From contig JAEOSK010000005.1 in NCBI GenBank assembly GCA_016840405.1, positions 15,324 through 79,323 of the forward strand: 64,000 bases of DNA, in the 5' to 3' direction. This DNA comes from Candidatus Hermodarchaeum yapensis. Lineage in GTDB: Archaea; Asgardarchaeota; Hermodarchaeia; Hermodarchaeales; Hermodarchaeaceae. Position numbers and translations under genes: made by a program. Positions 48,401 to 51,143 of the stretch are shown piece by piece; positions within the stretch are counted from its first letter, which is position 1, and the number at the start of each line of letters is the position of its first letter. The notes under the pieces were generated by a model. It was given only the letters and a program-made list of their open reading frames with translations. It had not been told where the DNA came from and searched no databases.

Positions 48401-49046
48401 CGCCAGTGTAGCCTAGATTGAACCAACTAGGATAGATGAAGTTGTTTGCGTCGTCCATAGCATGAGCATAGCTATGATACACACCAATGGGTGCGAAAGA
48501 GTTGAAAACTCCAGTGAAGGTGATATTGAGCATTGTCGTGTCTTCCGTGATGAATCCACCCTGAAAGTCAAAGAATTCCACAGGGTCTCGTGGGTCGCTG
48601 GGCATCATGTCATGAAGAGCACTGAATACATTCCAGTCACCTGTCTTTGTGAAATAATCCATCCAGATGCCAGCAGAATGAGTTTCATTATACATATCGA
48701 GGCCAATCGTCGCCATCTCTAACTCTGTGTTCCCTTGTTCAAAGAACGCTTTCGGAACAATCAAAGTGAATTTCATGAGATCACCCCGATCGGCTTGATA
48801 CTCATTCACTGCGATGTCGGTGTCATTTTCGTAAGTAATGATCAGTTGGAGTGTTTCCCCAAACAACCATTCCGTGTTTGTACTATCCCATGTACTTGTA
48901 TCGAAAAACTGATTCCGCTGCCAGTCCACAAAAATGAACGGATCGGTTGATTGTGGACCATGCTGAGCAAGAGTTACTGTAGGTATAATCGTGATACAGA
49001 TAGTGAAAAGTAGGCAAATAGCAAGTATACTCCAAATTCGTTTCAT
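45447..49046 (-). CDS. Large (1199 aa) secreted, C-terminally membrane-anchored surface protein, W/N/D/T-rich, domain family unknown
   Basis: Signal peptide MKRIWSILAICLLFTICITIIPTVTLAQ, C-terminal TM IIAIGVAILVILVVVGIM plus an RRRG tail, and at least about 20 N-x-S/T sequons seen by eye. Confidence 0.7.
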   Translation of the reverse strand: MKRIWSILAICLLFTICITIIPTVTLAQHGPQSTDPFIFVDWQRNQFFDTSTWDSTNTEWLFGETLQLIITYENDTDIAVNEYQADRGDLMKFTLIVPKAFFEQGNTELEMATIGLDMYNETHSAGIWMDYFTKTGDWNVFSALHDMMPSDPRDPVEFFDFQGGFITEDTTMLNITFTGVFNSFAPIGVYHSYAHAMDDANNFIYPSWFNLGYTGDMPMPPIALECELDFHHGFMPMPEYELRLLNGTSLMPIQYAEAGDPLIVELTMTEPVGFAGFSLDWIIDGGWQPEYVIRMNVSYPEDYSDFNTAWYEYEAWLYPSLGFSYNATTDVAEAFAFYKYESYVWEDYGSGMGNWMYQPEMVVNASILPDFIVFDPSSGDLDPQTIHWKFSLTEAVLNHGNDNYGGFFHVWAGQPREHGTSTLDGKRAEPSMSFCETDGFRFGYNDFLADGFIRDAFTGEIRTQADPLEHVNISLDVHASSELFEHFSDPDNSAGQWEREELTLETITLWIGGNAWGWNDTHNWNAYSSINLLIDADTLTVIDQYCSIVNETWFSMDGFLVSRVETNTTVGLSNLIQVFGVEIDIAEQLTKFNVEMKFLNGAPHGDYWFEFQAQQNRTIYWNTTGTWEPQWWNIEFLYFGGRTQWTPSWFTLGNTWSYIPELWAVTEDGALDLDGDLETIADQYYVKRVYNWHDDHEWTDDSLFVHITFDPTPMFEHQGDEFMSSSWMGLHTDRVTYQWNESFYWYHSNDLSLVSAPEMASILDTVWLNMTEQIPAPGYHGIAWMTLNRSWDDIQAEWWWLDDNTWEFSWFGFDTTQGFVLAFDDNSTTHANFHTAFSGLLLFTDNQTLGGNGVPDFYVTEGFIDTDEVTHYFLMEDVGSISFTLPFNSTESDGQRQISTSEWVDYGVRIYDITGTLFPTHTELGTGLKSCWDYHGTGAGLVGLNATDFDYMVSQATIDEIGFDVHFQVLLANTAENPEPNNNLVDIKVDQYIGDWTLHHFDNRVLEGRGLAISYFGALSTDTFSEFSVDNKQVASNNENTEIGDMYLFGSEGRTFASVQMGGQLYDWGKDGQTYNCSAATVPMGAFSAMFHSETGKSVTHWEMESTFFFMLSGFTNWDGYSIDNDPYFGIYTSALNMIPPGPPPGDGLDWLLQNVGIIAIGVAILVILVVVGIMNVRRRGSGPSKATRKATSDYWADR

Positions 49047-49379
49047 GGCTCGAATCCCCGCTAAAGGATGCGTTGCTTCTCTAGAATCAAAAATCCGTAG
49101 CTAAAAACATTGGTTGTCGGGAAAGGAAGCTTCTGAACGCCTTGAAGATATCGCAAGCCAATGAGCTTTTGTTGGCTCAAACAGTCTTTGGAAGAAAATT
49201 TCATTCCATCCATTTTTTTGGAAAAATTGGCAACTACTATCCAGCGGATAATTTCGCAGAATTAAACTTCATTGCTAATACACCACATGAATTTCGAGAA
49301 AGATTTTGATTAAACACATCATGGGATTTCCTCATCACAAGAAGTGGGATAATTAGCCAGCATCCTTGACGACAAGCTT

Positions 49380-51038
49380 TTGTATATCAATTACACTGCG
49401 TACTCCTACGAATTAGATGAGGATTTGAAACAGTTGTTTAAAACTAGTTCTGAATTCTTTCCAAAAGATGCCAAAGTTCTCAAAGACATGCCTTGGGTTG
49501 GACGTGTCTCCTTTGCCGATATCAAAGAAAAAATCGAAGAGATTAAAACCCGTCCTATCATGTGCAGTAATTGTGGTGGTGCATTAACCAACCCCGATAT
49601 TATCCAAGTTTCACCTACAAAAGGCAAGACCTTCCAGTGTGAATTTTGTGGCACCCTAAACGTCATCCCGAAGGATCTTATGCCTGGAACGGATCTGTCT
49701 GAGTTCGTGTTGGGGCAGCTTACTCGTGCTAAACCCATCACTGAGGATACACTGCTTGCTGTGATTGACATTTCTGGATCAATGAGTGGTGGTAAATTAG
49801 CAGCGGTGAAAGAGTCACTGATCCGAACCGTGACCGATTTGAGCGTCAATGCTCCTGAAACAACTTTTGGGCTTCTAGCCTTCCATAGTGATGTTTATTG
49901 TTATGATGAAAACATGAAGGAAGTTTTCACGCTTTCAGGGGATATGCGATACAGTGTGGAAGAAATCACCAAAGCTGTGGAGAAGAAATTGAAAGATGTC
50001 GAGCTCAAACCCTTGAAGAAAACTAAGAAAAAATGGGTCTCGAATATTGAAAAACTCCGAGATATTGACATGACTGCCCTAGGTCCTGCCATGGTAGCTG
50101 GTTATGTCATTATGAAAGATCGGGGTGGACGCATCATTCTCCTCACTGATGGCCTTGCTAATGAAGGCGTTGGGACCCTTGAAGGTTCTTCAACAACTGG
50201 GGCTCAACTGTACGAAGATTTGGCTATCAAAGCGGCCAATGCAAGTATCATCATTGACGTGGTTGGGATTAAAGATCCATCTGCCTTTATGGCGCTAGAA
50301 GCCCTGGCTGTGATGCCTATGCAAACTGGCGGAACCATGTTTTATGCTCAAGCCTCTGAAATTGCTGCCGCCATGAGTTCATCTTCAAGTGGGAAGATTG
50401 TGGCCAGGGGAGTGAAAATGCGAGTCATTACTCCCGAAGATGTTGAGGTGGCTGAAGTTAGCGGACTTGGTGGAACCGATGCAGAACAACTGAAAAAAGG
50501 CATTCGGATTGGATCTGTAACTGAGGACCGGGAAGTGTATGTTCGGCTCACTCCAGCAGCGAAAGTGAAAGAAAAAGAAGTACCCATCCAAGTTCAAGTC
50601 TCCTACATGGATGAAGAAGGCAACCAGCGAATGCGAGTCATGACTAAACGAGTCAAAGTCACCGATGATGCCAAACCCATCATCGAAACTCTTGATGTCG
50701 AACTACCAGCCACTTACGCCGTCCAACGGGCTGGTGAAGAACAGTATCGGGGCGAAGTTGCTAAGAGCAAGAAAATCCTTGAAAACACTCAAAACGCGTA
50801 TAGAGCCGTGCGAAACAAAGCTCCGGCATCACTTGTAAAGGCTATCGAAAAAGCTGACAAGATACTTGATGAAGAAATCGCCGAAGCCGATCAAGTTGCG
50901 GAACGACAGAAGGAAGAGATGAGTAAACGGTCTGTCGTGGGTGTCGCCCAGGCGGCACCAATTGCCGATGAGGATGCCGCGTTGAGTATGCAGAAGGCAC
51001 GTAAATCCAGTAAACAACTCTTCGAAGATGAAGAATAA
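49380..51038 (+). CDS. Sec23/Sec24-like protein (Zn finger, vWA trunk, beta-barrel, helical tail)
   Basis: 552 aa with a TTG start; an alternative ATG lies at 49488. CSNCGGALTNP-x17-CEFCGTLNVIP, MIDAS DISGSMSG, and a QVQVSYMDEEGNQRMRVMTKRVKVT barrel-like segment. Confidence 0.65.
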   Translation: MYINYTAYSYELDEDLKQLFKTSSEFFPKDAKVLKDMPWVGRVSFADIKEKIEEIKTRPIMCSNCGGALTNPDIIQVSPTKGKTFQCEFCGTLNVIPKDLMPGTDLSEFVLGQLTRAKPITEDTLLAVIDISGSMSGGKLAAVKESLIRTVTDLSVNAPETTFGLLAFHSDVYCYDENMKEVFTLSGDMRYSVEEITKAVEKKLKDVELKPLKKTKKKWVSNIEKLRDIDMTALGPAMVAGYVIMKDRGGRIILLTDGLANEGVGTLEGSSTTGAQLYEDLAIKAANASIIIDVVGIKDPSAFMALEALAVMPMQTGGTMFYAQASEIAAAMSSSSSGKIVARGVKMRVITPEDVEVAEVSGLGGTDAEQLKKGIRIGSVTEDREVYVRLTPAAKVKEKEVPIQVQVSYMDEEGNQRMRVMTKRVKVTDDAKPIIETLDVELPATYAVQRAGEEQYRGEVAKSKKILENTQNAYRAVRNKAPASLVKAIEKADKILDEEIAEADQVAERQKEEMSKRSVVGVAQAAPIADEDAALSMQKARKSSKQLFEDEE

Positions 51039-51143
51039 CCTACTAAGCCTAAAAATCAGAGGGAACCATTCGATAGGATTCCTTCTCGCACCTTTTTTCA
51101 GAGAATATCGTCGATTAGGCGAAATGATGTGATTAGCATCAAC

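Follow-up and report, generated by a model that had tools for sequence, protein, structure and literature searches.

The subject of this analysis is a gene of Candidatus Hermodarchaeum yapensis that encodes a homologue of Sec23 and Sec24, components of the COPII (coat protein complex II) vesicle coat. It lies within a stretch of 64,000 nucleotides of contig JAEOSK010000005.1 (the window), where an open reading frame (ORF) of 552 codons at 49380..51038 on the + strand opens with TTG. The gene stands alone, with a divergently transcribed gene for a 1199-amino acid surface protein on one side and a convergent acyl-CoA dehydrogenase gene on the other. A sequence-only reading of the window had taken the whole ORF as the gene; the reading frame is real, but its 5' end was over-extended. 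The coding sequence of the Sec23/24-like protein is most likely 49434..51038 (+ strand), with a TTG start, a TAA stop and a product of 534 amino acids. The codon corresponding to the TTG at 49434 is ATG in five of six close relatives, and a ribosome-binding-like GAGGAT at 49419..49424 (+ strand) lies 9 nt ahead of it and is kept as GGGGAT or GAGGAT in seven of seven aligned loci. Upstream of 49434 the aligned close relatives differ by frame-breaking indels. Asgard homologues are 534 amino acids long and begin with MFKTSS, the AlphaFold2 confidence (pLDDT, predicted local distance difference test) falls below 50 for residues 1-16, and homology to Sec24 is first seen by hhalign at residue 19. 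We have therefore rejected the TTG at 49380 as the start. Residue numbers in this text follow the 552-codon ORF and are thus the true numbers plus 18, as were those of the earlier reading because of its extended 5' end.

The protein begins with beta-strands that form part of a split beta-sandwich (49434..49553, + strand; residues 19-58, with AlphaFold2 strands at 20-22, 26-28 and 40-44), which hhalign pairs with the N-terminal strands of Sec24. An M-x-F-x-S motif at the N-terminus also heads the eukaryotic cpRAS-VWA proteins discussed below. There follows a C4 zinc finger of the Sec23/24 type (49554..49673, + strand; residues 59-98). Residues 61-97 read MCSNCGGALTNPDIIQVSPTKGKTFQCEFCGTLNVIP, a CxxC-x21-CxxC arrangement provided by C62, C65, C87 and C90, just as had been reported from the sequence. 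All four cysteines are invariant in an alignment of 40 Asgard sequences, and both HMMER and hhalign align the finger onto that of Sec24. The dipeptide NP after the first cysteine pair had been offered as a further Sec23/24 signature. This we reject, as it occurs solely in the Hermodarchaeota clade and not across the family. A bare CxxC...CxxC pattern is not rare, being carried by five of the 67 ORFs of the window, so it is not evidence in itself and the case rests on profile and fold.

The finger is followed by a von Willebrand factor A (vWA) or Sec23/24 trunk domain (49749..50387, + strand; residues 124-336), modelled with an alpha/beta fold that Foldseek matches to Sec24 and Sec23. It contains the D-I-S-G-S motif of a MIDAS (metal ion-dependent adhesion site) at 49767..49781 (+ strand), the sequence DISGSMSG beginning at codon 130, nucleotide 49767. 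The motif supplies D130, S132 and S134, to which are added T232 (50073-50075) and D257 (50148-50150). A beta-sandwich domain (50397..50663, + strand; residues 340-428) carries a Q-x-Q-x-x-Y-x-D-x-x-G-x-x-x-x-R block. The beta-rich block with the VPIQVQVSYMDEEGNQRMRVMTKRVKVT motif is present where it had been placed, with VPIQVQVSYMDEEGNQRMRV within it, and residues Q404, Q406, Y409, D411, G414 and R419 are invariant in the 40-sequence alignment. Beyond the sandwich lies a helical domain (50670..50930, + strand; residues 431-517), with AlphaFold2 helices at 431-436, 441-456, 460-478 and 483-517. Of these, the first two (ending at about residue 468) match the start of the Sec24 helical domain. 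The C-terminal part had been described as a charged helical tail. The final 122 residues are indeed helical and 36% charged, but they are not a plain tail, as part of them belongs to a true domain. The protein finishes with a conserved C-terminal tail (50946..51035, + strand; residues 523-552) that reads A-D-E-D-A-A-L-S-M-Q-K-A-R-K-S-S-K-Q-L-F before an acidic end, and is kept across Asgard clades. No signal peptide or transmembrane segment is visible in the protein sequence, and we therefore place the protein in the cytosol.

We have compared the protein with the Pfam families of Sec23 and Sec24, as the sequence-only reading had proposed. As a single sequence it matches Sec23_trunk (PF04811) with 43.7 bits, above the cut-off of 27 and better than the generic VWA model at 34.7 bits. 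Sec23_BS (PF08033) gives 30.4 bits against a cut-off of 33.5, with E = 5.9e-7 and the whole profile covered, and zf-Sec23_Sec24 (PF04810) gives 18.8 bits against a cut-off of 25 (E = 0.0017). The three matches lie in the order finger, trunk, sandwich that is correct for Sec23/24. Across 40 family members the trunk is matched in 40, the sandwich in 40 (best E 2e-10) and the finger in 23 (E ≤ 0.01), bearing out the proposals that the finger is of the Sec23/24 type and the beta-rich segment its sandwich. The Sec23_helical model (PF04815) matches none of the 40, although the first two helices still align to the start of that domain in Sec24. None of the 40 matches the gelsolin domain (PF00626) either, and the target protein ends after its helical tail, so that the absence of this domain, noted previously, is upheld.

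Profile and structural comparisons extend the similarity over the whole core. When the family profile was searched against the PDB, human Sec24A was found with E = 2e-14 in a single unbroken alignment of finger, trunk and sandwich, followed by yeast Sec24 (2e-12), Sec23A (3e-5) and generic vWA proteins (about 1e-4). Aligned by hhalign to 23 Sec24 sequences, the Asgard family gives a probability of 99.6% and E = 8.8e-24 over 433 columns, in an alignment that begins with the first strand of the N-terminus and runs on past the sandwich into the two helices that come next. An AlphaFold2 model (pLDDT 84.5; predicted template modelling score 0.85) was compared with the PDB using Foldseek. Sec24 and Sec23 fill the top 46 matches, with E down to 1e-28, TM scores of 0.58-0.67 and 505-661 aligned columns; alignments to Sec23 cover about 620 columns. 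We conclude that the protein is a homologue of the Sec23/24 core. Among the same Foldseek matches, entry 9ya0 (ranks 21, 41-43 and 46) contains Sec23 and Sec24 chains as structural parts of the Toxoplasma pre-conoid ring, where the Sec23/24 fold is at work outside COPII vesicle budding.

A different origin for these matches would be that the protein is a generic prokaryotic zinc-ribbon and vWA protein, akin to ChlD, BatA or YfbK or to a vWA component of a defence system, with only a superficial likeness to Sec23/24. Database names lean that way, since most copies are annotated merely as 'VWA domain-containing protein' and some as 'Mg-chelatase subunit ChlD', and bacterial proteins with vWA, sandwich and helical domains do exist and have the LLTDGLANQG motif in common with the target. 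Yet bacterial vWA and sandwich comparators taken from the same scan match none of the Sec23/24 Pfam models, only generic VWA ones, whereas in the target the Sec23 trunk model beats VWA and the Sec23 sandwich and finger models match as well. The unbroken alignment to Sec24 from N-terminal strand into helical domain, and the 46 leading Foldseek matches, are equally at odds with a superficial likeness. A defence-system vWA protein was rejected in view of the lack of any PADLOC match. The searches thus recovered much more than vWA and zinc-ribbon matches, and the generic explanation is effectively refuted, with next to no probability left to it.

The family is an Asgard one. Our homologue search returned 199 matches with 33-94% identity and about 97% coverage, all from Asgard metagenome-assembled genomes (MAGs) where named. 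They include Thor-, Hermod-, Frey-, Jord-, Hel-, Heimdall- and Loki-type lineages, with the cultured Lokiarchaeum ossiferum among them. The alignment of 40 Asgard sequences contains 50 invariant columns. The genomes nearest to the target copy are Hermodarchaeota MAGs (86-93% identity), and the target copy belongs to a Hermodarchaeia-type subclade. A neighbouring gene is matched at 100% identity by a JGI sequence and is a member of a family restricted to Hermodarchaeia, so that the window too is of Hermodarchaeia type. A pattern-based scan of GTDB, which divergent paralogues may escape, found one locus per genome, complete chromosomes (L015, L025 and L053) included; one Thorarchaeota MAG gave two contigs with the locus (L052, L060). 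Some labels do not agree with sequence grouping. A copy 93-94% identical to the target (L007 / P0001) is labelled 'Odinarchaeota', although its nearest relatives are Hermodarchaeota, and copies from two 'Hermodarchaeota' MAGs fall elsewhere, that of L044 with the Loki-like clade and that of L054 with the Thor clade. Mislabelling, paralogy or transfer could account for these inconsistencies.

Much of this is already in the literature. Lists of the eukaryotic signature proteins of Asgard archaea include Sec23/24-type proteins, and the earlier statement that such proteins had been noted in Thorarchaeota is correct, one Thorarchaeota protein being named 'SEC24 family transport protein'. 'Asgard Sec23-like proteins' have been modelled, and were found to possess every Sec23 domain but gelsolin (PMC11914678, published in 2025). 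The same paper reports that residues contacting Sar1 are absent from them, that Asgard archaea encode Arf-like GTPases able to bind membranes, and that three of the Sec23-like proteins co-precipitate weakly with one Asgard Arf in yeast in a manner insensitive to nucleotide, which is the sole experiment on the family. Its authors call these proteins true ancestors of Sec23. The finding as originally stated, an Asgard Sec23/24-like protein without a gelsolin domain, is therefore already known, and the window adds one further member, a Hermodarchaeia copy, to the published family. Sec23 is established as both an effector and a GTPase-activating protein (GAP) of Sar1 (PMC11914678). Because the target protein has no gelsolin domain, the carrier of the Sec23 arginine finger, it cannot be a Sec23-type GAP.

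The metal site sets the Asgard family apart from Sec24. D130, S132, S134, T232 and D257 are invariant in the 40 Asgard sequences, and the five positions are likewise invariant in 38 eukaryotic cpRAS-VWA sequences. In Sec24 the MIDAS is degenerate, with DVSxx in the first motif, serine in place of threonine, and no aspartate at the last position. The vWA domain and intact MIDAS had both been correctly recognized from the sequence, but the MIDAS had been counted as a likeness to Sec23/24; since the Sec24 site is degenerate, it is a difference. Conservation of the complete site points to metal-mediated binding of a ligand. The invariant aspartate of the C-terminal tail is a candidate for an intramolecular MIDAS ligand.

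An intact MIDAS within a vWA domain that splits a sandwich is also found in ArnB, and raises another possible function. The protein might be a regulatory scaffold like ArnB, in which phosphorylation of a serine/threonine-rich C-terminal tail switches the binding of partners, with gene or protein regulation rather than trafficking as the output. The layout of vWA domain with MIDAS, split sandwich and C-terminal helices is common to ArnB and ArnE, whose structures are the next Foldseek matches after Sec23/24 (8s05, E = 6e-18; 5a8j, E = 7e-15). The Asgard profile scores ArnB at 41 bits, and the conserved tail of the target contains an S-S-K motif. Structural papers on ArnA and ArnB describe a core of vWA domain, split sandwich and helical bundle in Crenarchaeota and bacteria that resembles the Sec23/24 core, and the likeness to Sec23/24 was noted by the ArnAB authors (PMC12852372). 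Both measures nonetheless place the target nearer to Sec24 than to ArnB (56 against 41 bits with the Asgard profile; Foldseek E of 1e-28 against 6e-18), there is no Pfam match to ArnB_C, and the zinc finger is present in cis rather than on a separate FHA protein. No gene for an FHA protein, a kinase or PP2A was found among the neighbourhoods inspected. We regard regulation of the ArnB kind as an unlikely function for the protein.

The closest eukaryotic relatives proved to lie elsewhere. We used the Asgard profile in an exhaustive search of 1.84 billion representative sequences, in which 553 proteins were found at E ≤ 1e-30. Some 35 Asgard representatives score at least 329 bits, and are followed by about 110 proteins of 450-1090 amino acids with scores of 187-235 bits, far above the 56 bits of Sec24. 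Nine of the latter were sampled for their source. Five are eukaryotic (a sea urchin 'circularly permutated Ras protein 1-like', and proteins from Entamoeba invadens, a choanoflagellate, Soliformovum and an MMETSP transcript), and the others come from metagenome or assembly contigs. The Pfam architecture of the group is Sec23 finger, trunk and sandwich, to which some proteins add Kelch and ankyrin repeats, or a Ras domain at the N-terminus that Pfam matches in two pieces. The group is the cpRAS-VWA family described by Elias and Novotny (2008; PMC2430557), who noted its Sec23/24-trunk annotation and a possible four-cysteine finger, inferred that it is ancient in eukaryotes and found no function for it. 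They also described paralogues that lack cpRAS. A 2026 paper lists CPRas as potentially present in the last eukaryotic common ancestor. In the library that we could search, no paper was found that ties cpRAS to Asgard archaea.

Alignment of the two families by hhalign gives a probability of 100% and E = 1.3e-77 over 471 columns; for cpRAS-VWA against Sec24 the value is E = 3.2e-25. Asgard and cpRAS-VWA proteins have in common the N-terminal M-x-F-x-S strand, the finger, DxSGSM, TALGP and TDGxANxG motifs, the sandwich block and the C-terminal tail, which in the eukaryotic family comprises a comparable aspartate, hydrophobic residues, a basic patch, S/A-S/A-K and an aromatic residue. A neighbour-joining tree of 90 sequences, rooted on bacterial vWA and sandwich proteins, has the form (bacteria,(Sec24,(Asgard, cpRAS-VWA))). 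It was built from Kimura-corrected distances that are saturated between groups, and the Asgard plus cpRAS-VWA split is found in 119 of 200 bootstraps, where the alternatives reach 34 and 30, so the tree gives weak support to the grouping and the argument for kinship rests on the profile scores. By these scores the closest eukaryotic relatives of the Asgard family are the cpRAS-VWA proteins and not Sec23/24. The sequence-only reading missed this closer family, as it did the significance of the intact MIDAS as a difference from Sec23/24 and the modelling and partial testing published in 2025.

At least 25 of the 110 eukaryotic members listed carry the cpRAS insertion. This domain is a circularly permuted, Ras-like GTPase. 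The cpRAS domain (in P0165, P0168 and at least 23 others of P0157-P0266) sits between an N-terminal M-x-F-G-S strand and the zinc finger. Placed between the first strand and the finger, it is an insertion into the split beta-sandwich topology, and the N-terminal region described as of poor conservation in 2008 appears to be the first strand of the sandwich. No GTPase domain is present in the target protein or in any Asgard member listed, nor is there one in the cpRAS-less eukaryotic paralogues.

We have examined the genomic neighbourhood by clustering the ORFs that lie up to 10 kb to either side of 62 Asgard loci. Synteny is confined within clades, and a conserved operon partner was rejected, no neighbour family being found across clades. 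In Thorarchaeota (25-27 loci) the gene is followed downstream on the same strand by genes for a Roadblock/LC7 protein, an Arf-family GTPase, a zinc-ribbon protein and a second Roadblock protein. In the representative locus L019 (12128..14633, + strand) the first and second Roadblock/LC7 genes score 36.7 and 58.4 bits and the Arf-family GTPase 54.8 bits, the zinc-ribbon protein is a membrane protein, and the arrangement looks like a GTPase module of the MglA/MglB type. A third Roadblock-like gene lies upstream of the Thorarchaeota orthologue (L030 9493..9855). In the Loki-like clade a Ras/Rab GTPase gene is located 1.3-1.8 kb upstream of the orthologue on the same strand, and in a Heimdall-labelled clade one is found 4.4 kb away. 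These Ras/Rab-family genes score 155-185 bits (L042 8265..8798, L049 8539..9072 and L045 8655..9173, with others in L040, L046 and L056; further examples at L043 2977..3600 and L057 5522..6145). Three loci have a second Ras/Rab GTPase paralogue 4-7 kb downstream. A strict GTPase motif filter had missed real GTPases with an SKxD G4 motif, and was replaced by hidden Markov models (HMMs). With these, no Arf-like, Rab-like or Roadblock homologue was found among all ORFs of the 64-kb window, even at E ≤ 1. The earlier statement that the window holds no Sar1/Arf-like GTPase thus stands up to an HMM screen; for Sec13/31, the other part of that statement, there is likewise no such gene in the window.

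An Arf-family GTPase gene adjoining the Thorarchaeota orthologues raises the thought that the protein functions as a primitive, COPII-like inner coat or as a cargo adaptor. Recruited to a membrane by an Arf- or Sar-like GTPase, it would bind membrane proteins by their cytosolic tails and help to deform the membrane. True homology to the whole Sec23/24 core, the ability of Asgard Arf-like GTPases to bind membranes (PMC11914678), and the divergent neighbour of the gene in the Hermodarchaeota clade, which encodes a type-I surface protein whose cytosolic tail is short, would all fit. However, both the gelsolin domain and its arginine finger are absent, Sar1-contact residues are reported to be missing, and the Asgard Arf co-precipitation was weak and independent of nucleotide (PMC11914678). 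The window has no Sec13/31-like gene and its screen for GTPase and Roadblock genes was negative, and those neighbouring genes that were scanned with Pfam have housekeeping or metabolic functions. A single locus per genome, complete chromosomes included, provides no pair of the Sec23/Sec24 type, although the pattern-based scan may miss divergent copies. Lastly, the intact MIDAS and the closer kinship with cpRAS-VWA suggest another mode of binding. A role as a coat seems to us improbable.

The function that we favour, and consider rather probable, is that of a soluble cytosolic adaptor that is dependent on a metal ion and probably works with small Ras-superfamily GTPases. Its core is the split beta-sandwich built from the N-terminal strands and a later segment, with the finger and vWA trunk inserted and the helical domain placed after it. 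By analogy with other vWA and I-domains, the MIDAS face may coordinate a residue of a partner protein, either acidic or phosphorylated, and the platform of finger, sandwich and helical domain together with the conserved tail could provide extra docking or autoregulatory surfaces. The adaptor would probably act with, or downstream of, the GTPases. We propose the coupling to GTPases because of the cpRAS fusions, the neighbours in the Thor and Loki clades, and the precedent of Sec23 and Sar1. A number of points weigh against this adaptor function. The one experiment on the family gave the weak, nucleotide-insensitive co-precipitation with an Asgard Arf in yeast (PMC11914678). The function of the MIDAS is deduced from conservation alone. 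None of the GTPase or Roadblock homologues sought is encoded in the window, and no neighbour family is common to the Asgard clades within ±10 kb of the 62 loci. Since small GTPases abound in Asgard genomes, chance might account for their proximity in three clades, and synteny within a clade counts as one event per clade. The deep split with cpRAS-VWA has about 60% bootstrap support from saturated distances.

These comparisons suggest a different evolutionary relationship from that proposed in 2025, one that we put forward tentatively and would stop somewhat short of calling probable. The Asgard Sec23/24-like proteins may be the archaeal counterpart of cpRAS-VWA and not direct forerunners of Sec23. 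Their ancestor would have been a MIDAS adaptor already paired with small GTPases, and Sec23/24 would be an offshoot that lost the MIDAS and gained the gelsolin domain. The Asgard Sec23/24-like genes form part of the case for trafficking building blocks in the archaeal ancestor of eukaryotes. If cpRAS-VWA is the true eukaryotic counterpart, the 'COPII precursor' account needs an extra duplication step, a eukaryotic orphan family acquires its origin in archaea, and the cpRAS fusion, the Thorarchaeota GTPase/Roadblock genes and the invariant MIDAS offer handles for experiments. Worth following are the closer kinship to cpRAS-VWA, the difference in MIDAS and the GTPase/Roadblock genes that adjoin the orthologues in particular lineages.

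Other features of the locus and window may be recorded here. A conserved upstream block, GACGACAAGCTTTTGTA, at 49368..49384 (+ strand) is the sole well-conserved stretch 5' of the start in seven Hermodarchaeota-clade loci, and is a candidate promoter element; the spurious TTG at 49380 lies inside it. A run of six T at 51093..51098 (+ strand) may be an archaeal terminator; it lies some 55 nt past the stop codon, in the gap that separates the gene from that of the convergently transcribed acyl-CoA dehydrogenase. A scan for bacterial-type promoters and terminators gave results at or below chance, with a type of model unsuited to archaea. An NCBIfam scan gave no meaningful match, and Rfam and tRNA scans of the window gave none, and hence no taxonomic marker.

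The divergent gene at 45447..49046 (- strand) encodes the 1199-amino acid protein, which has a signal peptide, a C-terminal transmembrane helix and a short basic cytosolic tail, and has no Pfam or PADLOC match. Paralogues lie upstream of the target orthologue in L002, L006 (two in tandem), L007 and L010. Beyond it, 44265..45356 (+ strand) encodes 363 amino acids, comprising an N-terminal soluble domain of about 110 amino acids and a multi-pass membrane domain. Sub-threshold Pfam matches of the soluble domain are to longin-fold families only (Clat_adaptor_s, E = 0.0056; Fuz_longin_1, E = 0.0058; Sybindin, E = 0.078), and with an AlphaFold2 pLDDT below 50 for this domain a longin-like fold is putative. 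The family is small and shallow, with 19 matches that are all from Hermodarchaeia, and it is syntenic with the target in the Hermodarchaeota clade only (the window, L002 and L006). Finally, 39798..40733 (+ strand) encodes 311 amino acids with a CxxC...CxxC motif and a weak match, below the cut-off, to the B-box zinc finger (E = 3.8e-4). B-box domains are mainly eukaryotic.

How, then, does the protein compare with known systems? In COPII Sec24 and Sec23 (PF04810, PF04811, PF08033, PF04815 and PF00626; PDB 1M2V and 3EGD) the split sandwich, finger, trunk and start of the helical domain are homologous, with equal order and fold. The target differs from them in lacking the gelsolin domain and arginine finger, in a helical domain that is not picked up by PF04815, and in its complete MIDAS, which Asgard and cpRAS-VWA proteins possess and Sec24 has lost. 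It is also shorter, at about 534 amino acids against 750-1000, with an identity of about 15-17%, and the Asgard family is apparently single copy where COPII has a Sec23/Sec24 pair. From the published Asgard Sec23/24-like family (PMC11914678, Nat Commun 2025; for example P0026 of Thorarchaeota SMTZ1-45, the 'SEC24 family transport protein') there is no essential difference. Domains, lack of gelsolin and top Foldseek matches are equal and full-length identity is 38-94%, the target representing the Hermodarchaeia-type subclade.

The ArnB/ArnE (vWA2) proteins with ArnA of Sulfolobus acidocaldarius (PDB 8S05 and 5A8J; PMC6509490, PMC12852372) have an occupied MIDAS, a vWA domain that interrupts the sandwich, helices bundled at the C-terminus and a finger packed against the sandwich. 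There, however, the finger resides on the separate FHA protein and control is exerted by the kinases ArnC/D and PP2A, whereas in the target the finger is fused in the Sec23/24 position. Bacterial proteins such as L068 of Ktedonobacteraceae and L071 of Acidobacteria (YfbK-like) have a MIDAS vWA domain with LLTDGLANQG followed by sandwich and helices, but they lack the zinc finger, match generic VWA Pfam models only and have 23-26% identity to the target. The cpRAS-VWA proteins (XP_072166437.1 of sea urchin; XP_004255617.1 of Entamoeba invadens) are colinear with the Asgard family from the N-terminal strand to the C-terminal tail. They differ in being eukaryotic and longer, with low-complexity inserts, and in the addition of Kelch and ankyrin repeats or a RING domain in some members.

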